A stretch of 60,907 nucleotides of DNA, filler included, from Sphacelaria rigidula (taxonomy: Eukaryota): the NCBI GenBank assembly GCA_964200075.2. It is 6 parts of 6 records of this genome, joined end to end, with 100 filler letters (N's around TTAATTAATTAA, not from the genome) between each part and the next. Parts side by side here need not be neighbours in the genome. Positions count along the whole stretch, not along the records: positions 30,507 to 40,573 come from CAXNAA020007214.1; 5 more parts are not named here. One strand, 5' to 3'. How positions within the stretch are numbered: the stretch's first letter is position 1; each line of letters opens with the position of its first letter. Positions 6,980 to 49,618 of the stretch are shown here, one piece after another. The notes below the pieces were generated by a model, which saw nothing but the letters and a program-made list of their open reading frames with translations, had not been told where the DNA came from and did not search any database. The translations under genes and the position numbers were made by a program.

Positions 6980-8879
6980 CCTAGTATATCCACTGTTAAC
7001 ATGATCTGCCGGCGGGGATTCCTGTCCTCTTTCAGCCGTCAGTTTCTCGAGAAGCCAGGTGATCGTGTCTATTAGATATTTTTGTTATCAACAGCTCGGT
7101 CTTATTGGCAACATCGTTGAGCCCATCGCTATTTTCACCAACTTGATTTTCCAGCGACACATTCGTTTTTTCCTCCTCGGCCATGTTGCACATTCCGTAA
7201 CACGACAACCAATGGACGCTAGTGTGTCAAGACATTTTGCCTAGTAGTGTAACGTAGGTCGCAGGTTGTAGGTGATGCATCAATGTCGGCATGGCGCACG
7301 AAGCATGGCTTGCGGATCAAGCCCGGCCATGAACAGTTGAGCGGTAGAAAAGACATATAGTACGAGGAGTTAATGAAAATGCATGTCTACCTAAACAATA
7401 AATCATGTAATACTTTGTTTTCTGCATCCATGCACAGAACACTCTTAAGATCCACTTATACTTGACGAATACAACGACAGTGGCTATACTTCAGCGTCTT
7501 GAATTCATTTATCGGACTATCAACACCCATATGCACTGCAGAACGCGTTGTTGAAAAACAGGGCGATGTTTCCGTCACCGCTACTGTTTTCTCTCATACA
7601 CATGCCAGCAAGGACGGTGCTGCGGCAATAACATATCCAATTTAAACTTGGGCGGTGTTATTTATCGTTGGTTTAACCCGTCTTGTGCACTCGTACCTGG
7701 GCGTGCGCGACGACGAGGGCGTGCCGTACGCCAGTTGGGGGGGTGTATCAGAGATCAAGCACTTGTGGAGACCTTCTCGTCATGCGGAATGAAAACCGAT
7801 ACCTATGGTGGTGACCTAACCGTTGCTAGCGTGGTGCAGAGGGGTACGTCCATGCTACAATGTTGCGCACCTACCCGGCCGCTGCGTGTGTCGCGGTAGC
7901 TTTCGACAACTCTCAAGTGAGTAAGTCATTCATTACAAGCTGAGGAGAGATATGTTGTACAAGGAATAAGAGTGCTCTGTGATCAACCAAATGTCGTTGC
8001 ATTTGAGACCCACGCCATCAACCGCCGACCGCGAAGGTCTTGTGGCTTCAAACCAACGCTTGCGGCAGTACGCCAGACAACCCGGTCAAAGCTAGCTTTC
8101 GTCGTTCTAATGTCTGTACTGACTGTCGCGGCGTCTGTACAATCACCTCGTAACAGCACCGAAATCGACAAGGGTTGTAAAAATGAAAAATTCCATTTTT
8201 CAATTCATCCTACACACTTTAAGATACTCTCAAGAGCTGCGGGAAAGTGGCCGCTTTGACTTTGGTCAAACGTGCGAAGGTATACTGTCGAACAGCAAAA
8301 CCAAGCTATGCAGGGATTGGCGAAAATCAATCAGTATAGAACCGAAGTGGAATGAACAACTTGACGTTCTGAACGTAAACCTAAGCGTTCGAAACTATTT
8401 GCATGTGGGAAAACGCGGGTTTCCATCACGAAAGCTCTCTGTGACCCCGTCAATGTTACATGAACTGGCAAACACTCTGTCGTCGTGCCATGTGGACGTA
8501 GTTGAGAAACTCGGCTTGTTTTATTTTCACATCACGGCGCTTCGCGCTTGGTGATTGAGTGCGATCTTGGTCCGGCGAAATCCCGGCGTGCTCCGTCCCG
8601 GTTGTGTCGTGGTGCNNNNNNNNNNGGTTAATGTTCTTATGGGTACAGCGGGCATGGTGATGATTACACCCCCCCCCCCCCCCCCCTTCCCTCCCTTCCT
8701 CTGTAGCAGCATCACTAGATAATATTAACGACAATAGTAATACTGGCAACAACAACAACAACAATGATGACGACGGCGACGAGAATCGCGCGGTAGCTGT
8801 ATACACGAACTGTGCGGAACAAAATACACGGCCCTTGGATCTCACCAGCGCACACGTGAGAGACGTGAGCACCGTGTAC

Positions 8880-9978
8880 AACTGTACTGTACTTAAGGAG
8901 AGTGCCAGACAATTCAACAAACGGTTAGTGTCGAGACTGGAAAAAATTGGTTTCGAACAGTGCCTGTCGGATCCATGCCTATTGCGATTGCTAGTGGATG
9001 GTAAGTTGGTAGGAGCAGTCGTTCTGCATGTAGATGATATCATTTTTGGAGGGGCAAGTAATGTGGGTAAGATGGTAGTGGAAGCACTAAATGACACACC
9101 GCCAACTAAGCATCTAGGCGATCTCACATGGTACATGGGAGTGGAGAACAAGCGTGACAAGGAGAACAGGGTTATTGAGTTATCACAGACAAGTTACATT
9201 AGAAGCGTACTTGAACGTTTTGATATTTGTCACTCCAGCTCTCTTCCCGCCTCTACTTCTATGAATCTCAGGTCCGTGAATGGCGAAAAAGGTGTCAAGG
9301 ATGTGCCGTTTCGCGAAATGGTGGGTTGTTTGATGTGGATTGCCAAGCGAACCAGACCTGATATCTCCAACGCAGTGAGAGCCGTGGCGCGACACTCGCA
9401 CGACCCGAAGGAAACCCAGTGGAAGGCGGTACAAAAGAGTTTCGAGTACCTGCATTCAACGGCGGACCTAGGGCTGACATATCGTGTAGGACCTGGCGTA
9501 GACAAAAAAAACAACAGTGTATGTGGATGCGGACTACGGGAAAGATGACGAGGTGAGGAGATCGGTATCGGGTGGTGCAGTTTTGTGTGGTAGATCACCA
9601 GTGGCATGGTACTCCAGGACGCAAAGAAGCGTTACACTTTCGACCACGGAAGCAGAGTATGTGGCTATGGGGGATGGTGTCGAAGAAGCTTTGTTTATTG
9701 ACGGCATTGTGGATTTTCTTTTCGTTGACTGGAAAGCAAGGACTATGAGGGTGTTGGAGGATAACGAGGGTGCGATTGCTCTAGCTGAAAATGCAATAAG
9801 CTCGTCGAACAGCAAGCGTATAGATATTCGTCATTATTTTCTGGGGGAGTTAGTGGACAAAAAGAGGATAACGTTGGAACACGTACGGAGTAACGACCAA
9901 CACGCTGATATTCTGACCAAAATGGTAACCTCGCGGAGCTTTCGTCCACCATTGAACGTTTTGTTGGGTATTGAGTGA
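8880..9978 (+). mobile_element. 5'-truncated Ty1/copia pol fragment: reverse transcriptase + RNase H, frameshifted
   Basis: LKESARQFN, GFEQCLSDPCL, LHVDDII, RTRPDISNAV; then YVDADY, RRSVSGG, LSTTEAEYVA, EDNEGAI, SKRIDIRHYF, QHADILTK; frameshift at the A-run near 9503-9512. Confidence 0.96.
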
Positions 9979-30376: not shown

Positions 30377-30406
30377 GTGCGGTGTTGTATATAATCCCCC
30401 CCCCCC

Positions 30407-30506
30407 NNNNNNNNNNNNNNNNNNNNNNNNNNNNNNNNNNNNNNNNNNNNTTAATTAATTAANNNNNNNNNNNNNNNNNNNNNNNNNNNNNNNNNNNNNN
30501 NNNNNN
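30407..30506. other. artificial contig-joining spacer
   Basis: identical 100-bp spacer. Confidence 0.97.
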
Positions 30507-30630
30507 CTCCTCCTCAAAATTGCGCATCAGCAGTGTCGTGCGGTACTCCTGAGGGCTTTTCGTCATTCAACGGCTAGGGTCTTCAAACCTCATTTCATTG
30601 ATGAACCTCATCTTTTAGAGTCCCCTGTTT

Positions 30631-30911
30631 TATTCGTGAAATTCAGAGTGCAGTTCCGGATTCAGAGTGAGTATTTCAAACGGAGGACCAGTTTTCTCTG
30701 TGGTCGATTCTTTGGCAAAACAGCTCGTGTCACCAATCACCCAGAATTGGAAGCGGTGAAAACACGCACGTTCATTATTCGGGTTGGGGCGCAAGCCTCG
30801 GCAGCCAACATTTACGTGTTTCATTTGCAAATTATGCAAAATTGTTCCGAATTGTTCCGCCTTTGTGGGTTGATTTTCTCGAGCCTATAAGAAAGTTGCT
30901 TGGTTTAAGTG
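30631..30911 (+). repeat. left copy of 280-bp inverted repeat
   Basis: reverse complement of 40204-40483, about 90% identical by manual alignment. Confidence 0.93.
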
Positions 30912-31168
30912 CGTGTCAATGGGCTACTATCTCACAGCACGCGCCCCCGTCATTTATTTAACACGCTTCCACGCCTTGTTGCACGAAACGCAGCGACACA
31001 TTGATTGAGATACAAGGGTATCTCTCATTTGAGGCGAAGTACTGCCACGTGTCGGTCCTTCAACGTCATTCATTCCATCAGAATAGATACGAAACAGACC
31101 CCACCCGAACGGGAAGGTATCCTCAACAGCAAAATGTTCAAACGACACAAGTCTTCTCCTGCTATCCT

Positions 31169-31690
31169 CTATTTTGCGGGCCCTCCCGTCTGACGTGCCC
31201 TCATGCGAGGGGAGGCTACAGCGGTACGTTTGGTAGCACGATCCTCGTACTTGGGGATGAAGTACTCGTTGAGCAGTTCCTCCCCCTGCTCAAGTTCACG
31301 AGAAATCTTGAACTCGGCGCCATGTTCGGAATCAGACAACATGGACTCAACATCCTGCTTAGACCACTTCCCATCCCACAACGAGCGCCTGGCGACGTTT
31401 TGAGCTCCCGCCTTACTAATAGACGAATTCACGTAATACAAGAAACATATCGGATCGGGTTTGAGGCACAGCGTTGCGTGCTCCCGAGCAATCTCCGTGG
31501 GTTCCAAGAGGGCCTTAAATTGCTCAGCGGCGCAGAGAGCATACCGCGGTACTCCGTCAATCTCAACCGAGTGCAAAACCTCCTGGGGTGTCAATACCTC
31601 GTAGCTACCTACAGCATAAAGCGGCATCGCTTCGTCTCCGAGCTTTAAGTCTTGTGTGGCGAACACGCCCACGCCATCCAGATCAGATCC
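31169..31690 (-). CDS. SET-domain protein, terminal exon
   Basis: tag|GSDLDGVGVFATQDLKLGD ... FLYYVNSS ... FKISRELEQGEELLNEY: the three SET motifs (GxGVFA, RFINHS-like, GEEL..Y). Confidence 0.82.
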   Translation of the reverse strand, partial: GSDLDGVGVFATQDLKLGDEAMPLYAVGSYEVLTPQEVLHSVEIDGVPRYALCAAEQFKALLEPTEIAREHATLCLKPDPICFLYYVNSSISKAGAQNVARRSLWDGKWSKQDVESMLSDSEHGAEFKISRELEQGEELLNEYFIPKYEDRATKRTAVASPRMRARQTGGPAK

Positions 31691-31905
31691 CTATGTCATC
31701 GGAAAGGGGACAACAACAAAAAGTACACGGTGGGTCCTTCGAAAGTTAGCGTACGCGATCGGCCTTCAACAGGGAGTAACGGACGAGGTTCGAAAAAAAG
31801 GCTACACATAAAATGCACATCATGATACTGGTAACTAGTAGAATACTGTATGCCTGGGCAAAATAGGAGTCACTCGCGCCAAGCTGGTACAGCACCAACA
31901 CTCAC

Positions 31906-32040
31906 ATCTTGAACTGCAGCGACCACTTCGCGCGGGGCACGATGGCTTTTACTTTGACTATCTCGCGACCGATGTCCTTGGACCACTGATCGATCTTCCC
32001 ACACTCCTCTTCGGAAGGGATCTGCCCGACGAGCGCACCC
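31906..32040 (-). CDS. internal 135-nt exon upstream of the SET exon
   Basis: cag|...|gtgagt; two open frames; the GC3-rich one reads GALVGQIPSEEECGKIDQWSKDIGREIVKVKAIVPRAKWSLQFK. Confidence 0.55.
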
Positions 32041-32425
32041 CTGGCAAATAAAGGTAGAAAACGGACAACACGCCGACGGGGCCAGAGATTTCGGGTCTTC
32101 ATGTCGATTGATTGATTGATTATCTCACATTAGCTGATTGCAACAATATACAGGATGTAAAAATACGCGTGTCTTCAAGTGGGAAGGCGCAGCTTGTGAC
32201 CAACAACAAAAAAGATGTACAAACGTCGGATTTGAAGGCACAGCTAACGATTGCTTAAGCTAGACAGACGCCCATCGGGCGTGCTCTGCCAGAATAGGTG
32301 TTGGATCGACAAGAAAAGCTGAAGCATGAGTGCCATCAAGCCGGCTAGAAGGTTTGAACACATGACTGTAACAAAGGTAGAGGCACGCACAACCAGCCGT
32401 ACCGTGCCAAGCGGTAAATGCAGAC

Positions 32426-32641
32426 CTTCTGCTCGTGCTCCTTCATTTCGAGAAACTCCGGCCTGCCGACCATCTTGAGCGTCACTCTGTTGTGGTCGAA
32501 ACGTTTGACGTCCGGGTGCTTGTCGTCGCGGCCATTGAGATAGCTGACATCCAAGAACACGTCAAGCGCGGCCTCCTTGAAGTTGGTGGCGATGTTGATG
32601 TACTTCGTGAGGGTTGTTTTGACAGGCGGCTTCTCCTCTTG
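32426..32641 (-). CDS. internal exon of the ParB-like/SET locus
   Basis: polypyrimidine-cag acceptor, aag|gtctgc donor, GC3-rich codons; EKPPVKTTLTKYINIATNFKEAALDVFLDVSYLNG...EMKEHEQK. Confidence 0.65.
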
Positions 32642-32741
32642 CTGTTGGCCGAGGGAACAACGGAGGAAAGTGATCACAGCGCCGAGCATAATGCATTCGA
32701 GTGGGCCTTGGAGTTCAAGACACGATGCTTCAGCTACTTCA

Positions 32742-33743
32742 GGCCGCTTCTTATAGACTGAAAAAAGTATCTGGACGACTATCCTCAGAGGCTTGTTTCA
32801 GAGAAATCAGTTTGCAGAACTCCACCTCTCAGATTTTGAAAAAATCCTGGGGATTTGTACACCCGAGGCCATCATCTAGCCTGCGTGCAGGCGGTGGTAG
32901 TGGTCATCATTTGCATTTCGTGCTTGAGTCACCTGAGGTAAACCAACACGTAAACAATCCCATCGAGGTACAGGATAGATGGGATGACAACATACACAGA
33001 GGCACAAACACTCACACACACGCGCAGTAGCTACCGGTACAATAGGGAACGAAATAATAGGCGTATCAACCCTTACTTCAGCCGATCGCCGCTTGGTGCT
33101 GTAGTCTTGTCGGTGTAATTTGTTGCGCAGCAGACGGTTTGTCCCACGCTGCACACAACAAATTCAAGCGACAGTTAGCAGTGCGGTAGCAAGCCTCTTA
33201 GTACACAGACTACTACAGAGTCTTCAATCGGTGGCGGGCACGACTAGCATGAAACGATACGAGCAGTCAACACAGCCAGTGGGGGTGACATCGTGCAATT
33301 TTACGGTAGTAACGCTGCCGGCAAAAAGCGCTGTACTGTCTGTACTGTCTGTCCTGCGGTCATGAAGAGGATGCATCGCGTGTTGCAGCAGTGATGCTGT
33401 TGCCACGATACTGTACATACAACATGCATAGCTACTTTTGCTCTGACTGTACAACGCTTGTATGGGAGGAGTATGTGATGGAGCCCTGACTGTACCATTG
33501 TGGGTGCAATGTGCGAGGAATGTATTATGGAACTACAGTTCCCAGAGAGAGAAATTCTCTGCGAATCGACGGCTTTTCGCATAGGGATTTCGCAAAATCC
33601 CGCTCCCTGCAAATTTCGGCCAGTTTCCACATTATTTTTAAATGAAAAATGGCCTTGTAAGGTAGTGTTCTGAAAAACGTCTCTGGAGACTGACCAAAAC
33701 GACTCTCGTCAGAGACGTTTTTTTCCGTCTGTAAGAAGCGGCC
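32742..33743. mobile_element. PIF/Harbinger-like non-autonomous element in an intron
   Basis: TIRs GGCCGCTTCTTATAGAC / GTCTGTAAGAAGCGGCC; flanks TCA and TTA; another end at 37980 preceded by TTA. Confidence 0.65.
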
Positions 33744-33942
33744 TTAGTCTCACCCAGAGTCATCTACAACTTGACCCCAGAAGGGGTGGATTATCAACCG
33801 CTGCTACAGACGACGACGACAGTGAGTGATCCCAACGGTTTTGAGTGTCTCACGGCGACAGCAGAAAACTATTCACAAATCGCGTGGCACGCGCACGAGT
33901 ATGGTCAAGTGGCTTGTAGGCAACACGCGAATGCTCACTTGC

Positions 33943-34094
33943 TTATATGAACTCCTTCCTGACGAGATTGCAGAGCCGGTTCTCGGTAAGCGAAGAGCCT
34001 TGACCCTGCTGGACAGCCCTCAGGATGGTCCTGTACCACCTGATCTGATCGACCAACAAGCGCTCGACCAAAGTAGCGGCGATTCGGTTCAAGC
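33943..34094 (-). CDS. ParB-like locus exon ending in an in-frame TAA
   Basis: catcag|(G)LNRIAATLVERLLVDQIRWYRTILRAVQQGQGSSLTENRLCNLVRKEFI*; donor GTGAGC 4 nt after the stop. Confidence 0.6.
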
Positions 34095-34835
34095 CTGATG
34101 CAGAAACAAGAGCCGAGAGAACATACGAAACATCATGTCACGAAAAAATGAAACCTGGTTATGCTGGATGACTTCAAGTATTATTTCACAAAATTCCGAC
34201 ACGATGCGCATGAGGTAATTCGTGAAGTCCCCATCATCCCCCCTCGACATCTTATTTTCCAATGCGTCGTCGACAAAAATGTAATAGGAAAATCTGTTCC
34301 GAAATTTAGATCACCAGTAACGTACAAGGAAAATAATAACAGAAGATGGGGAAACGGTTGAGTCCCCACCTATACCCGATGTATATCGTATAAAAAATTA
34401 ATGGAGAAAAAATCAAATTCAGCAGTGAAATCGCGTTTTTCTGTCGATAACCGGTTCATTTCCTTTCAGGGTACAACAATCTCAGCCGGGACTTTGACGT
34501 TTTCTACAAGCGGGACGCCTTGGCGCGCCGGAGGTCTCGTCTGTGCGCCATCTCAGGCATGGAGCGCCTACAGTACGACATGCGTTCTTGTACGACCACA
34601 ATTGGTGCAGCATCATCACTGTGCGGCCGCGACACAAACTGTAAGCGCAAATGCCAATTCGGCCGTTTTCTCCCCGAAATTTTGCCGCACAGCCTTCGAC
34701 ACTCAATTCTCTACACTTCGCAGCTGACTGCTGTGCAGAGCTATGGCTAGACGTCCCTCGTGCCAAGGCGCCTAAGCGAAATTGGAATATCAAGACAAAA
34801 AGAGGAAGCAAAACAAAATATTCATGCCAGCTCAC

Positions 34836-35021
34836 CGTGAGAAACCATTCTCTCCGTTGCAGGAGACATCTGACGGTGGACTTGAACCATGATCACCGTG
34901 TCCGTGCCACGCCTGCGGCCGATGTTGTGCACGGCACCCGTCCAGTGGTAGCCATCCAGAACCCTGAAGGTCGTCGTCGCATTTCTCAGATGATCTTCGA
35001 GGTCGATATCGGAAGGGAGAG
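34836..35021 (-). CDS. ParB/Sulfiredoxin-like domain exon
   Basis: aag|(P)LPSDIDLEDHLRNATTTFRVLDGYHWTGAVHNIGRRRGTDTVIMVQVHRQMSPATERMVSH|gtgagc; phase 1 at both ends, matching neighbours. Confidence 0.6.
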
Positions 35022-35171
35022 CTTCGTTTCACACAACAACAGGAGCTTATGCATGCCTAAACCCGTCTTTCTCTACCGATGCCTCCAACGTTTTCAAGCC
35101 CGACTCTCTCTGCAATCTACCGATGGGATCCTTCTAGTGCAGAGGAAAAAGGGGTCGAGCAGTTTGCTTAC

Positions 35172-35234
35172 GTCTACAGCAGCAGGCTTGTCTTCCATCG
35201 CAATAACCCTGGGCACGCACGAGAGGGAGAAACG
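35172..35234 (-). CDS. ParB-like locus upstream exon
   Basis: tcag|FLPLVRAQGYCDGRQACCCR|gtaagc; phase-compatible with 35021. Confidence 0.5.
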
Positions 35235-35299
35235 CTGACCCACACCCGGAGAATGTGGTGAAGAAAGGGAGAGGCGCCGGATAATGAGGGGTGGGGGGT

Positions 35300-35513
35300 T
35301 GTAATGCGTGAGAGGATCGCGTGCTTAGAGGACCGCATCGGAATTTGAACATCCCTATGGTTAAGGTTAGGGTTAGGGTTAGGGTTGAGGTTGTTATGGT
35401 CAGGAGCGTGGTACCTGCAGGGACTGGCCCAATTGATTTCGAAAAACGTCGATTCTGAGGTGTTTTGAACTACGGCGCAGTCCTCTAAGCACGCGGTCCT
35501 CTCACGCATTACA
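35300..35513. mobile_element. 214-bp MITE, TGT...ACA termini, 5-bp TSD, internal TTAGGG repeats
   Basis: 37-bp TIR TGTAATGCGTGAGAGGATCGCGTGCTTAGAGGACCGC; GGGGT on both flanks. Confidence 0.85.
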
Positions 35514-36709
35514 GGGGTGACGAAAAAAATCAGATGCGGATGATATTAGGCGGCGGGGTTTTTTGTCGATACGGTTCAAGGACGAAACACGACCGCTTGT
35601 TTTTGCACCCGCGTGCGTCGGCTGCACTGACGTTTTCTTACAGCGTAAGACAGCATGAACAGCCTAGGTCAAATATAACTTCAATCGGCGGTGGCGTTGT
35701 TCCGGGCTATCCATTCGAATCGAGGTTGAACTGAAGCCAGCTGTTGAACCACATGGCACTTCCTCTTTTATTTGATTGGATGAGTTTCAACTGATGTCAG
35801 CAACGTGTTGTTGACCACGGATCGGGTACAGATGGATCAATTAGCTACAGAACCACCTTCGTCTGAGAAACGTATCTAGTAGTATAATTCAAAAGGATTC
35901 GACGTCTCAACCGTTGCCCGTTGCCCTCTGCAACCCCCCCCTCTCCCCACCCGTTCCCACAACCATCTGGCCTGCATCACCAATCACCTGGAACCTGAAG
36001 CGAAGGCTGCACGTGGTCAAGATCGGCGTCACGTGGTCAAGACCATCCCGGTGGCCTCTGTCTCTCCAGTCGCATGCGCCTTTTGCCCACCATGTATACG
36101 GTGAGTCTTGACAAATTCAACTGTTGAAAGCTTCCGCTGCTGTCGTTGAAGCAGTTTGTCTCGTTTCTTAGAGCAATTGAGTCCCATCAGACGCCACGTG
36201 ACGGATGACGCAGGCGAGTGCAACCCATGCCCGAAGTAGTCTTGCATGGTCGGACGTAAATATCATGCGTCATCACACACGTATCGATGACATGAACTGC
36301 AGCTCGTTCGGTGTGGGCTCCTTTGTGGTGTGCGCTCGACTATTAACTCAAATGCCTCTTGTTCTGCCAAATCGAAGATACACCGGGACAGAATGTGCTT
36401 CATTAAATGAGCGGGCAAAGCCAGCCTCTCAAGCCAAACCTCCCGCACACAGATTAGCGTAAACCAAAGGGACTGTAGAAAGCGCGACTATGGCCGAGTG
36501 TTCAAACTCGGCACTGGCCCAAAATTCAAGACCTCTCCATGATCAGACGAAGGACTGAAACATAGGGCATACCCTGTTTCACTGCTGTACCGCAGCAGAA
36601 ACACTCAATCCGTGTTGCATGTGTCGGAGCTTCGACTGTCTGTTCTGTTGTGGTATGCTCACGCATTGCGAACACGGTTTGGATTGAATGGGCTGCGATA
36701 TTGCACGAC

Positions 36710-36807
36710 TGGCCACTGGGGTGCCTGCAACCTCAAATTTGGACGTTACAGACGTTGCACAACGTCTGTAACGTCCAAATTTGAGGTTGCAGGCACCCCA
36801 GTGGCCA
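36710..36807. repeat. perfect palindrome: 48-bp arms, 2-nt loop
   Basis: 36710-36757 is the exact reverse complement of 36760-36807. Confidence 0.97.
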
Positions 36808-37189
36808 CCCGTGTGTCGGTGTGTTCGTCGCTGCAGAAAACATAATCGGTCGGCACGCAGCGCTGGCATCACACATTTGAAAGCTTCATGGGTGTGTTTG
36901 ACTATTTCGTCTTCGGTAAGACGAACAACGCATTGTCCGTTGATGCGACACTCCAGCTGATGTCGCGCGTTGGGCGCATGTACTATACATGTACCGTACT
37001 TGTGTTTTGTGCTCAGCGCACAACAGTGTATTATCGATGATACTGGATTTTGCTGAAACGCGCTACGAGTTGGACCGCACGCACACTTGGTTTTAGAGTT
37101 CTCCCCTGAAACTTCCCAAGCGAAATGGAGCGATATGATTGGTGAGTTAGCGAGCGATCTGTCCTGCTCCAAATGCAGCTTGCCCTTGA

Positions 37190-37830
37190 TCTTGGCTGCG
37201 CACATATGATGTACTGATGATGTAAAGTAACGTACACATATTACACGTATACATCTACACTTCGTCTTGGAATTTGCGCTCTAACTGCAGGTCGCTGGAC
37301 TTGCAGCTTTCATGTCGCCGACAGGGGTCGCACCGGCGCCTCCGACCGCTGCAGCGAAGGGACCGCAAGCGGACGACCAGCCATCAACTCCTCCTGTGAC
37401 TTCGGTAAGTCTTCCCAGATGCGGGTATTGAAGGCTTCCGCTGCTATCGTTGTCCCAGTTGTATCGTCTCTTGTAGAAATTGAATCCCATGCGCAAAGTG
37501 GTCTTGCATGATTGAACGTAGATATCAGGCGTCCTCACACACGTGTCGATGACATGAACTGCAGCTTGTTCGGTGTGGGCTCCTTCGTGGTGTGCGCTCG
37601 TCTACCAACTAGAATGCCTCCTGTTCTTGGCTGCGCACATATGATGTACTGGTGATGTAAAGTAACGTACGCATATTATATATACAAACGTCGTTGGGGT
37701 ATTTGTGGCCAAAACTCGGGCCGTTGAGCTCGCAGCTTTTATGTCGCCGAACGGGATGGCACCCGGGTCTCCGACCGCTCCACCGGAGCCACCGCAAGCA
37801 GACGATCAGCCACCTACTATGCCTCGGACT
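37190..37830. repeat. local tandem duplication (period about 435 bp) with a third partial copy at about 36120-36365
   Basis: CTTGGCTGCGCACATATGATGTACTG at 37191 and 37626; CGATGACATGAACTGCAGCT at about 36285 and 37547. Confidence 0.8.
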
Positions 37831-37891: not shown

Positions 37892-37979
37892 GTTTGTCTG
37901 TGGGTGTGTTTGTGCGTGTTCAAATGTTTGAGCCGCACAGTAGCAGCCGCCAGATGACAGCACTACCGAATGTTGTTTA

Positions 37980-38185
37980 GGCCGCTTCTCATAGACTGAA
38001 AAAAGTCTCGGAGAAAGTCATTCTGGTCAGCCCCCGGAGACCTTTCGCAGAACGCGACTTTACAGGGCCCTTTTTCACGAAACATATATCTGGAAACTGG
38101 CCGCAATTTGCAGACAGCGGTATTTTGCCGAATATCTTCGCGAGAATCCATTTATTCGCAGAGTTTTTTCTCTTTCCGGGAAATG
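37980..38185 (+). mobile_element. end fragment of the same Harbinger-like family
   Basis: TTA|GGCCGCTTCTCATAGACTGAAAAAAG; diverged reverse complement of about 33540-33743. Confidence 0.65.
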
Positions 38186-38466
38186 TCGTTCCATCACACA
38201 TTCCTCGCACACCGCACCCGCAGTGGTACAGCCGGTACCCGATCACACACCCCTCGCATACAAGCGCAGTATAGACAGCGCAATAGTAGTTGTCCATGTC
38301 GTATGTACATTTTTTGTGACTGATGTTTGGGTTCAGGCTGCATGAAGCGCCTCGTATTGGCAACATTGGCGAGAACTAGCCCAAGCGCGGGAATTCCCAG
38401 CTAATGGTTGTGCGAGCTACGAGTTGTTTTGCTTCATCCTACATCCATTACTTGTCGTGCCAACAG

Positions 38467-44493: not shown

Positions 44494-47400
44494 GCACCCC
44501 CACAGCGCGTTGGACGAGAATCGAACAACAAGCTTGACACATGGGAAACGCCAAAGCGGTCAGCAAGTCACAACTAAATACCAAACTCACGCGTAATGCG
44601 AGCAGCAACGGCACGAGTCATGCGCAATTCACGCAATTCCTTCGTGAGAAATTCCGGAGCGGCCTCGAAAATATCCTCGAAAGGCTCCCATGTACGCTTC
44701 TTCACTTCGACTCCAACCCAGTCAACCAACACGATCAACGAACGATCGTCTGCTTCTGCCATTCGGACAATACCAGCTAAATGAAATTACCCCTGATTAA
44801 AAGCATGCTGGAACACGTCCTTAACGTCAGCCATAACATGAAGCTGCGAGCCTGCATGAAAACACAAACGAGCTACATGGGCGGTCTGAACACGACCCGC
44901 AACAATGTTCTGGATCTCAAACACGTGCGGGTGGTGAGCACCAACAGTTCTCCACGGACCAGTCCACGTCGCCATCAACTTGGGCGTAACGCCCGGACGA
45001 CGCACGCGTGCATACAAGACATTGTCGCCGACCTCAAAATTCGGCAATTCCAGCCCCGACAAGGACCCCTCACGTCTACGCGCACGTTCAGCGGCAACAC
45101 GCTCCTGCACTTGAACGTGCAAATGTTCTTGCAAGCCCAAGGCTCCTTGCAACGCACGCCTAATTCGACCATCATCCAAGACATCACAATTCCATTCTCC
45201 CGCCGACGAAAACGCCAGTACCGAGAAAGACGTCCGAGGAGCATGGCTAAACATCACATGGTACGGCGTACTATCGTAACGACGACGATACACTGTATTG
45301 AGCGTCCATTCCACCGCAGGCAACACGGTCATCCACTCGGAAACCGCTCTATGCTGCTCGAGAAGATTAGAGCGAAGAGCACGAACTACTTCCTTGATCA
45401 TGCGTTCGCACGTGCCGTTAGACCACGGAGTATACTCAACCGCAAACTGGTGATCAACGTGCAAAGCCTCTCGCAATCGGGCAAAGATCGCATTCTTGAA
45501 ATGCGTGGCGGTGTCAATCACCCACACACGCGCCACCCCCAAAGGTTTGCACCAATTGAGCAAAGATGCAGCAGGCGATTGGGCAGTACACACTGCTACT
45601 GATTCCAGAGACACGAAGTTGCTCAAATCATCCATTATCACCAAAATGGATCGAAACCCAGCATTCTCCGACAATCCTTAGGAAGCTAGCGGGTCACTCT
45701 CGCCCACGTACAAGAAGTCAAAATGAACGACTTCATTCGGCATGATCCCATGGACCGTTTCACCGAGCGGGCGGGGAACAACTTCGCCCACCCTCGAGTC
45801 AGCACAGTGAGAACACTGGCGGAAACGTTCGTGCACATAAGTTTCCATCCCCTGCCAAATACAAAACTCCTGCAAGTGCACGAGCTTCGCGGCCACACCA
45901 CGATGCCCGGCGTCGCGCAAGTGCGCGCAGATCATCAGACGTACCTGCAATTGCTTGTCAGAGCTCAGAATCCACAAAACGTTTCGACCACGCACATGCA
46001 CACGAAACAGACCTTCATTGTCGAAGAAAGTAGTACCAACGTCCGACGCGAAAGATTGCACATCCGCCTCTTCGACCCCAAGGTCTTTTCGTTGCGCTTG
46101 GTGGACAAACGATTTTGACGGCATCGAGCCATCAAGTTCACACGGACCATACACAGCCACAGCATGCACAGGTAAAACCGGAATATTCACCCAACGCGAA
46201 AGCAAGTCACCCCACGCGTTACGGTCACCCGAAATGTGGCAAATCGAGTAACGATACTGGCCAAGAACACCTTTCCAACCCTCCAAACGTTGTGCCAACG
46301 TCTTCGACACAGACGAAACGCACGCTTCCGGGTTGAAAATTTACACGATCTCGGTGATACGTGAAAATGTGCACGCCATCCCACAAAAGATGCTCCAAAT
46401 GACGAAAAGTGCTCGCGATAGCAAGCATTCCTCGTCATTTGTGGCCCAACGCAACTACGAACCCTTGAAACTACCACTGAGGGAAACCAGCGATTCATGC
46501 GTCATATGCTCGACCGGCAAGCATCGCTGCATTTCAAATTCAGGCACCTGAGTGACAAAACTACCCCAATGGCACTCAGATGCATCCGGAAACATCAACA
46601 CCAGGCAATCAGGACGAGGATGGAACAGCGTAGCGGCATGAGCCACCAGATCCTTCGTTGCTGCCCACGCCTGTAGCCTGCCCTCGGTCCACGGTGCAGT
46701 CGGAATAGCGCGGTTTTTTGCCACGCGCTTCGTCCGCCTCGCAGCACCCGCCATGAGTTCTTCGGAGAAAACACGCAAGGGAGCGACGATTTCTGCCATA
46801 CGTGGCAACGAGGTACGCAGCCAATTCACGGCCTGAAGAAATTGCATGAGTTCTGCGACCGTCTCCTGGCGCCGCATGTCAGACAAGCCTTGCAATCCGA
46901 CAGGGTCAGGAGATACGCGTCCGTGGGAGTACATTTTCCCACACCACACGAGTTCACCAGCGAAAAGAGTACACTTGTGCGCAGCCGCAAACAAACCAAC
47001 ACACTCTAAGCGAGCACTCAACAGATCAAGCATGTCCAACTCTTGGTTGGGAATCACACCTCGTGACTTCTCAACCTGCTCATTCACGGCCTTGTAGTCG
47101 CTTACCAGGCGGAACGAGTCCTTCTTCGGAATCATCATAGCCGGACTGGACCACATCGCCTGCAAGTTCCGATGGACCAATCCGAGCGCCAATGGAGCCG
47201 CCATGCACGACGCCAACCAGCTCGACTTTAACGGATCGTACTGCTGCGGCTTCGTCTTCACCGTGGACATCCCAGGTTTTAGCTGAACACGCATGGGCTT
47301 CACTCGCGCAGGGGGGTCAACCGGCAGCGCACGACGAAACGTGTTGACGCGACAATGCAAGATGCCGCGCAGGCGCTCCGCTTTTGAGACGCTGAGTACT

Positions 47401-49618
47401 TTCGCCACAGCATCCGTCGCGCTCTCCTTCAGCGCGATCTTCCGAGCGGACTCCTCTTCCGCCGGATCCATGAATATCTTCGGGCCACGGTTCACCAAGC
47501 GTTCCAACGCCCCATCCTGCTCCTCGGTCACCTGTCCCCCAGTCTCCTACAAAGCATCCACCGACAATATCACGCGACGACTGCCCAAAAGGGCGGGCAT
47601 CTCCACGCGCGGGTCAGGCGGAGACATCCGTGTCTTCATGGAGACCCACAACCGCGCATACGGGTCGACTCCAAGATCCTGAAGCATGGGCAACCTCAGA
47701 AGAATGACGCCATCCCACCCCGGCATGATCGCAAACGAGATCGGAGGCAACGGCGCCGGCCCCCAGGAAGTCATGAAAGCCAGCTGCAGCGGAACAGTAC
47801 GCTCCGAGACGGAAACATACTGACCCGACGCGGTGACGGCCTGCCGCGCGCCGAGCGAAAACGAATTGTGCAGCGGCACACCCGGGAAAGGATGCTCCAA
47901 CACCTCTACCATTTGCACCGACACGCTCATATGACTCGTGAAGTGGGCGCCAGAATCCAACACAGCCCGAACCGGGATGGCTCCGTACTCCCGTTGATTT
48001 TGAAGACACAGCTCCGCAGGAACGTATTTATGCGCAAACTCTACTGGTATATCACCCGCCGACCGATGCGCCGCTAATCCCACTTGACGTCACGGCTGCG
48101 CAACCTGCGCTGGCGAAGACACCCCGGCAGGTTCAAACGGCACCGCCGGCGAGTACGACCCCCAGCCAGCAGGCGAAGAGTTTGGCGAAACTCCGACCAG
48201 CGCATCAGCAGGCGTCGCGCCTGGCGCTGCTGCTGGCGTCGCCACCGGCGCCACCACCGGCGCCGGCGCAGTGTTCGACACTGTAGAAGTCGGTCCCTCC
48301 TGTACCGCCCGTTGCGGAGCAGCAGCACCTACGGCGGCGCCGGACCCAGAACCAGACCCATGCTGACGCCGCTGCCCCTGCTGCTGCTGCTGCTGCTGAG
48401 ACCTCGACTGCGACCCTCGACCACCGGAGGATCTGCCGCCGCCATCACCCCGATCATCTCATCCTTTGCTCTTGTACTGACGATGCTGATGGCGCGCGGC
48501 ATGAGACTGCCCAAACTCCCCACCGGAAGACGTTGGGCTATCGCGCGCGTAATGGTCGACCTGGCCACAGTGGTGGCAAGTGATGGTCGCGGCGCGGCCG
48601 GCCGATTTCAAGCCGTGGTGGCGAGAAGACTTTGACGAGGAGGTGGACGACTGGCCGAACACCCCTATCTTCCGCCACTCCTTGGCCTCGGCCACGACGG
48701 TGTCCATTACCAGGTATGGATCGGCCTTCGAATTTGTTTCGTGCTGCAACTTGACCAGCACGGCTTGCTGAGACTTTTCCGGCGCCAACCCCTCCTCCAA
48801 AGTCTTGGTGATAACTGCAGCCAGACCGGGAATGAACTCACCATCGGGGGAACAATACTCTTGTTCATCGTTCGGATATTTTGTGACGTACTTCTCCAGA
48901 TTGGACAAGATTGGCTCCACGCGCTCTAGCACCATCTTTCCCCGAGACGACATGGCGACAGCTTTCGCCGCAGCCGCGAACGCTTGGGTCAGCTGCACCC
49001 CGGCGCCCGCCGAATGCCTAGCATGCTTTTTGATCGCCGCAACCAATCGTGGCGGGATGGTTGTGCTCTCATCATTTTTCACACGAGCAAACACTCTCTG
49101 CACGTGCGTCGGCACGTGTTAAGCCATCGACACCACCTGATGTCGCACAGCACCCCCTGCGTTAACGTGCTCCACACGCTTCTTGTACTCCAAGCACTTG
49201 ATGTAGGAAGTGCAGGATGCACTCTCGGACTACTACTTATCCCCGTATTGGGGAGGTCGCCATTCTTCCCGCATAACCACGGGCGTTGCGCTGGACGCAG
49301 CACGCGAGCCGGTCGCCATAGCAGCAGCCGGCTACCTGCGAACCTTTCGCAGACCAGCGGACCGTCGCGCATTGCACACGTCACACTTCCTGCGTCGCCG
49401 CACCACACAGTCGTAGGACCCTCCAAACTCCCGCTGCACGCAGCTTCAGCAAGTCTTCAGTCTGGATCAATCACACGCCAGCCGCCTTTCTGCAGCTACC
49501 TCAGCTTGAACCCCCTCCACGCGTCCGTGATGAATCAGGTTGTCCCCAGCTTCCAACCTCTTCCATCGAAATTCGTCCAACAGGAGGTTCCGTGAGGTAC
49601 TAGAACTAATATCGATAA

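Follow-up and report, generated by a model that had tools for sequence, protein, structure and literature searches.

The locus considered here lies on the minus strand of a 60,907-nucleotide stretch of Sphacelaria rigidula DNA (assembly GCA_964200075.2, filler included; hereafter the window), and is an intron-containing, spliced brown-alga gene whose last exon is predicted to encode a divergent SET-type domain. A preliminary description had read it, from 35234 down to 31169, as an apparent, unproven fusion of a ParB/Srx CTP-binding fold, a helix-turn-helix (HTH) and a SET lysine methyltransferase. The reading that we favor, and consider probable as a whole, is of one degenerate copy, most likely a pseudogene, of a brown-alga SET gene that exists in several copies, with the SET module as its sole recognizable domain. 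On this reading the DGxH(W) motif taken for a ParB/Srx box, FRVLDGYHWTGA, is a chance resemblance, and what the upstream exons encode is unrelated to either ParB/Srx or an HTH. The window is eukaryotic DNA with a G+C content of about 50% and is rich in transposable elements.

The last exon is predicted to adopt a real but atypical and divergent SET fold. The Pfam SET profile (PF00856) aligns with it over positions 1–104 of 105 at an E value of 0.02, scoring 15.7 bits against a cut-off of 22.4 bits. An HMMER search of 1.84 billion representatives recovered 45 relatives of the exon at E≤1e-3, and the Pfam SET profile is found at E≤0.1 in 16 of 46 aligned family members (best 7e-7), with P0030 above the cut-off at 24.4 bits. 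When a profile of the family is compared with PDB, the ten best of 12 matches at E≤10 are all SET proteins. The top two, at E 0.006–0.0075, are chains of bacterial SET-domain effectors, LegAS4 and a sequence nearly identical to it, with KMT2C, KMT2D and EZH2 next in rank. The AlphaFold2 model of the exon, built from the family alignment, has a predicted local distance difference test score (pLDDT) of 85.4 and a predicted template-modeling score (pTM) of 0.75, and among the PDB matches listed by Foldseek all 41 rows are SET or PR domains (MLL3, MLL1, SETD8, EZH2, PRDMs, vSET). These rows have probabilities of 0.87–1.00, E values from 3.4e-3 and query-normalized template-modeling (TM) scores of 0.31–0.45, the best being MLL3 (5f6k_E).

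The hallmarks of SET domains are an N-terminal GxG, a C-terminal ELxxxY and an Asn-His (NHS/C) motif, and in SET enzymes the last of these contacts S-adenosylmethionine. The window exon keeps the N-terminal GxG (DGVGVFA) and the C-terminal ELxxxY (GEELLNEY), both aligned to those of SET-protein chains. There is no NH at the corresponding window position, and the LINHS of KMT5A falls on non-conserved family columns, as judged from the alignment only. What had been called a clear SET domain is a SET domain by predicted fold (AlphaFold2, Foldseek and the family profile agree on this) but a divergent one that scores below the Pfam cut-off. Intact members of the family would presumably act through this fold; they may be protein-lysine methyltransferases, or binding modules in which catalysis is impaired.

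The family is brown-alga-specific, multi-copy and SET-like, and the window copy is an ordinary degenerate member of it. Named relatives are from brown algae only (Laminaria digitata, Pylaiella littoralis, Ectocarpus sp. 6 and Scytosiphon promiscuus), and 17 of the 20 relatives looked up are without a name. Long gene models include P0001 (Laminaria digitata, 522 aa), P0030 (Ectocarpus sp. 6, 708 aa) and P0049 (Pylaiella littoralis, 674 aa), and the C-terminal SET-like domain in the long models is 31–36% identical to the window exon. P0001, P0007, P0030 and P0049 match the window over the SET exon only. In all three of P0001, P0030 and P0049 a conserved N-terminal module, about 250 aa in length, precedes the SET-like domain (alignment columns about 280–500); neither the Pfam nor the PDB profile search recognizes it, and it is a brown-alga-specific domain of unknown function. 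A possible resemblance of this module to a degenerate DNA methyltransferase found no backing in the Pfam and PDB searches, and we make no such claim.

Spliced contigs bear out the proposal of an intron-containing algal gene on the minus strand. They derive from X1, X2 and X3, three small runs of one study that are RNA by guess (no run is recorded as RNA), and were compared with X5, a DNA-like run of the same organism whose pieces are 99% identical to the window; at some positions X5 carries window-like and sibling-like letters alike. The X1–X3 contigs are about 93% identical to the window and therefore derive from a sibling copy, which also has a frame-preserving 3-nt deletion at 32501. A joint of 34096 to 34838, present in all three runs and not in X5, corresponds to an intron at 34095–34835 with canonical GT..AG borders, allowing one mismatch. 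A second joint with the same distribution connects 32641 to 33946 with seven letters between them, which places the end of exon 3 at 33939 with a GT donor at 33938–33937; the junction anticipated earlier, from about 33939 to 32637/32641, is thus seen in all three runs as 33939|32641, with the provisos that the runs are presumed RNA and the copy is the sibling. One X2 contig joins 32405 directly to 31692 and bypasses the 135-nt exon proposed at 31906–32040, so that exon 4 extends to 32403 (GT at 32402–32401) and is spliced straight onto the SET exon at 31690. The X1 and X3 contigs terminate exactly at the positions of this joint, and the region of the 135-nt exon is covered only by a low-depth unspliced contig (31634–32023). 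That exon is open in two frames, the ambiguity that the preliminary description had acknowledged; SRP54, the only PDB phmmer match to its open reading frame (ORF), has an E value of 0.11 and was taken as chance.

Sibling copies are thus apparently transcribed and spliced at 34836|34094, 33939|32641 and 32403|31690. For the six minus-strand exons proposed earlier the AG/GT borders and the quoted peptides were all located in the window; the sibling contigs confirm the intron at 34095–34835 and the acceptors at 32641 and 31690, and place two donors elsewhere. An intron that had been drawn at 35022–35171 is spliced in no contig, and those of X1, X2 and X3 read straight through it, with coverage of the first exon extending over 34838–35218 in X1, 34838–35156 in X2, and 34838–35293 followed by 35514–35842 in X3. 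A run of N lies at about 30390–30510, some 350–450 bp past the 3′ end of the transcript contigs.

The two sets of donors have different consequences for the reading frame. Joined at the borders first proposed, the six exons form a single frame from 35234 to a terminal TAG at 31171–31169, the sole break being a TAA at 33945–33943, and this chain requires a GC donor (GCAAGT) at 33942–33941 and a GT donor at 32425–32424. The contig donors extend the exons by 4 and 23 nt (27 in all), additions that leave the SET frame in phase with that of exons 2 and 3. Exon 4, under the contig junctions, is read in an Arg/Gln/Gly-rich frame containing a TGA at 32564–32562. Its more protein-like frame, that of the preliminary description, is open both in the window and in the sibling ORFs P0046 and P0047 (79% and 82% identical), but is in phase with exon 3 and the SET exon only via the earlier donors. 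The in-phase joining first described therefore holds with its own borders, one TAA apart, whereas the contig donors put exon 4 out. Three candidate upstream exon ends each resemble the strand preceding GxG in the relatives.

Four features mark the window copy as decayed: the in-frame TAA with which exon 3 closes, a miniature inverted-repeat transposable element (MITE) inserted in the 5′ exon, the TGA in exon 4 in the frame set by the observed junctions, and a divergence of exons from the sibling that equals that of introns. The TAA beside a splice donor had already been taken as a sign of decay, correctly as it appears, and the triplet reads ATT in the joined contigs of the sibling. The MITE-like element is 214 bp long and is bounded by terminal inverted repeats of 37 bp; telomere-like TTAGGG repeats form a run in its interior, and GGGGT is duplicated at 35295–35299 and 35514–35518. 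It is missing from one X3 and one X5 contig, in which a joint of 35293 to 35514 skips the 220 bp at 35294–35513, and the insertion is specific to the window copy and absent from the sibling; the depth of its words in the DNA-like run X5 is extremely high, and it is therefore a very abundant element. Mismatches between the window and the X1 contigs amount to 6.5% in exon pieces and 6.3% in intron pieces. The sibling ORFs are 79–85% identical at the protein level, and by a rough estimate an unconstrained DNA divergence of about 7% would give about 85% protein identity if 75% of substitutions are nonsynonymous. Further copies or relatives number at least four: the transcribed sibling with the deletion at 32501, P0046, P0047 and P0002. 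Together, the TAA, the TGA, the MITE and the equal exon and intron divergence suggest that this copy is pseudogene-like and belongs to a subfamily that has multiplied recently, and the locus illustrates the decay of duplicated gene copies among transposable elements.

Some considerations weigh against this interpretation. The RNA nature of X1–X3 is a guess, and if these runs are DNA then the joined forms would be a processed copy; moreover, the contigs stem from the sibling copy and not from this locus. The protein-like frame of exon 4 fits the donors first proposed, and the other frame those of the contigs. The earlier exon chain keeps to one frame with just the one TAA, so inactivation may be recent, and that TAA could itself reflect a variant of the strain or of the assembly. 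Some of the intron sequence in the divergence comparison may belong to unrelated dispersed repeats, and the SET ORF is still open across 173 codons.

One alternative is that the gene is functional and uses another coding path, starting from the 34890 ATG, or from an exon further upstream that is as yet unseen, and continuing through exons 3 and 4 to the SET end, with the TAA and TGA representing strain or assembly variants, or with alternative donors (33943 GC and 32426 GT) avoiding the frame problem. The phase shared by the exon 2/3 and SET frames under both donor sets is consistent with this, as are the ATT of the sibling in place of the TAA, the preservation of frame by the sibling's deletion at 32501, and the open SET ORF in a family that the 45 homologs show to be maintained. 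However, every path through exon 3 includes the TAA, the exons are no better conserved than the introns, and the contig donors place exon 4 of the window copy in the frame with the TGA. The 5′ exon is interrupted by the MITE, and seven other ATGs with short ORFs lie upstream of the ATG at 34890. We therefore regard a functional gene as unlikely.

The locus could also be a chimeric unit, in which the SET exon has been combined with foreign exon fragments and the whole has been copied through a transposon or segmental duplication. Such an origin would account for the separate best frame of each exon and for neutral drift among the copies, and the existence of several copies (the window, the transcribed sibling, P0046, P0047 and P0002), the mixture of window-like and sibling-like letters in X5, the lack of relationship between the upstream exons and the N-terminal module of P0001, P0030 and P0049, the failure of the observed junctions to yield the protein-like frame of exon 4, and a neighborhood rich in transposable elements are all in keeping with it. 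A weak lead in the same direction comes from a protein language-model atlas, which returns phosphatidylinositol-transfer-protein look-alikes for exon 4 (score 0.91, 174 of 256 features, recognition 1703, below 2300). This lead has no backing from profiles, as Pfam gives no match to phosphatidylinositol transfer protein (PF02121) for the exon-4 ORF, P0046 or P0047, and their profile has 0 PDB matches; we retain it as a weak lead only. Around the unit neither transposon ends nor target duplications nor a transposase came to light, and the earlier donors give one consistent frame without chimerism. This origin seems quite improbable to us. An AlphaFold2 prediction for the exon-4 ORF with its two siblings is uninformative (pLDDT 40.6). 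We note that a 150-codon open frame (32348–32797, minus strand) spans exon 4 and runs into both flanking introns, and that it is open in two sibling copies too.

The [YF]xhhDGxHRxxA box, with its Arg, typifies the ParB/Srx family, and it is resembled by the motif FRVLDGYHWTGA together with what comes after it, a basic stretch and residues that are hydrophobic and strand-like. The motif reads DGYHW, however, with a TGG (Trp) codon at 34944–34942 where the defining Arg is expected, and none of the window's six frames contains the strict HR form. The same six frames contain the relaxed motif a single time; none of 300 simulated windows has it, and 5 of 300 have the shorter [YF]xhhDGxH form. This rarity carries little weight because the motif was chosen post hoc after very many windows had been scanned. 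In the first exon, unspliced as it is in the contigs, there is an in-frame stop at 35031–35029, 19 codons ahead of the motif, and the first in-frame ATG (34890) is downstream of it, so there is no coding room for the N-terminal half of a ParB fold.

Database searches give no indication of a ParB/Srx or HTH domain either. The profile searches queried the exon ORFs singly, and their speed filters may hide matches above about E 0.1. Neither ParB/Srx (ParB_N, PF02195 and relatives) in the exon-2, -3 and -4 ORFs, searched against Pfam, NCBIfam and PADLOC, nor any HTH family, including the ParB-type PF17762, in the exon-3 and exon-4 ORFs, searched against Pfam and NCBIfam, was matched at E≤10, which leaves both the ParB/Srx fold and the HTH placed downstream of the box without profile support. 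The preliminary description had named a missing ParB/Srx profile match as grounds for refutation, and for sequence profiles this is the outcome. PHROGs returned only two families of unknown function for the upstream ORFs (E 0.072 and 0.18), PDB phmmer a single irrelevant match to the exon-2 ORF (NKG2-D, E 1.7), and the language-model atlas no usable match for that ORF. A tblastn search of 50,697 phage records gave ten weak matches (E≥2), none of the ten annotated as ParB. For the exon-2 ORF, 5.8 billion proteins searched by word index yielded 14 candidates among the longer proteins, none at E≤10 and thus no relative, and viral contigs scanned with the SET exon, exon 4 and the exon-2 ORF contain no relative by a method that detects close relatives only. 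In the long family members P0001, P0007, P0010 and P0030 Pfam finds no ParB domain.

A gene that encodes, or once encoded, a ParB/Srx fold, an HTH and a SET lysine methyltransferase as a sequence-targeted chromatin modifier, since decayed by an Arg-to-Trp change and the TAA, is thus very unlikely, even though the earlier exon chain runs in one frame to the SET exon with a single TAA and fusions of the ParB fold to N6_N4 and MT-A70 methyltransferases are known (PMC12704722). The main text of that survey gives HTH, HNH, N6_N4 and MT-A70 methyltransferases as partners of ParB-CTPase folds and Srx as stand-alone in eukaryotes; the word 'lysine' occurs there 0 times and no ParB-SET fusion is described. 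The likeness between the fusions it covers and the present locus is confined to the idea of a ParB fold with a methyltransferase, and here there is no profile match. That an intact sibling, or another brown alga, should have a highly diverged ParB/Srx-like N-terminus, with Arg for Trp, joined to the SET-like domain is barely credible; if it were so, the fusion would be one not reported in the main text of the survey (PMC12704722). Had the ParB-SET proposal held, it would have meant a new way to aim a histone-type methyltransferase at DNA in a eukaryote, but it does not hold.

Table 1. Coordinates of features of the SET locus and its surroundings in the window.
Feature	Position	Strand	Basis or remark
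3′ untranslated part	30853–31168	-	Contigs reach 30907 (X1), 30921 (X2) and 30853 (X3)
Last coding exon, predicted divergent SET fold, 173 codons; stop TAG 31169–31171	31172–31690	-	ORF; acceptor AG 31692–31691
Candidate 135-nt exon, AG/GT borders, two frames open	31906–32040	-	Passed over in the sole bridging contig
Exon 4 by contigs (ended at 32426 in the earlier version)	32403–32641	-	X1, X2 and X3 cover 32405–32641
Intron 3, with dispersed repeat 33412–33744	32642–33938	-	Skipped in X1, X2 and X3, not in X5
Exon 3, in-frame TAA 33945–33943	33939–34094	-	Contig joints on both sides
Intron 2, GT..AG	34095–34835	-	Skipped in X1, X2 and X3; skip absent from X5
3′ part of long first exon, unspliced in contigs; includes earlier exons 1 and 2	34836–35293	-	Covered by X1–X3
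'ParB-like' motif FRVLDGYHWTGA, W at 34944–34942	34933–34968	-	No ParB profile match
MITE-like insertion in 5′ exon	35300–35513	.	Inverted repeats, target duplication
Upstream continuation of first exon or 5′ untranslated region in sibling transcript	35514–35842	-	One X3 contig
Integrase_H2C2	45681–46340		Decayed LTR-retroelement ORF
Zinc knuckle	48462–49118		Decayed LTR-retroelement ORF

Other repeats occur in the window (Table 1). A dispersed repeat is present at 33412–33744 and, inverted, at 37979–38309 (78% identical over 335 bp), one copy being inside intron 3. Upstream of the gene, at about 36190–37680 on the minus strand, there are two similar ORF fragments about 1.3 kb apart (e.g. 36187–36339 and 37281–37601) that suggest a tandem or dispersed repeat, and a 233-codon ORF at 36579–37280 has no Pfam match. 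Decayed ORFs of long terminal repeat (LTR) retrotransposons are found at 44790–49118 (minus strand), with an integrase zinc-binding domain, an RNase H-like fragment and a zinc knuckle, and at 8667–9548 (plus strand), with a copia-type reverse transcriptase fragment (RVT_2).

Among the closest comparisons for the degenerate SET gene are the long models of its own family. The window copy has the same C-terminal SET-like domain as P0001, P0030 and P0049, and an intron is at the same place, just ahead of the GxG strand (P0021 compared with P0030). The N-terminal module of the long models is absent from the window, however, and the window's upstream exons are without a counterpart in them. With the SET structures of KMT5A/SETD8 and MLL/KMT2 the family has in common the fold, the GxG-hFA strand and the C-terminal GEELLxxY. 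It differs from them in having an extra helical insert around DGVPRY, the identities in the Foldseek rows listed are 11–19%, the Pfam SET match of the window exon is sub-threshold, and methyltransferase activity is putative. A profile of the long members aligns with KMT5A at E 0.006, although the Asn-His of KMT5A is not kept in the family. A study of brown-alga chromatin toolkits (PMC13076208) describes the loss of PRC2 and of DNA methylation together with lineage-specific SET and DOT1 families, two such SET families being specific to the lineage. The named relatives of the locus described here are likewise all from brown algae, and the locus is relevant to this known peculiarity of brown-alga chromatin toolkits (PMC13076208).

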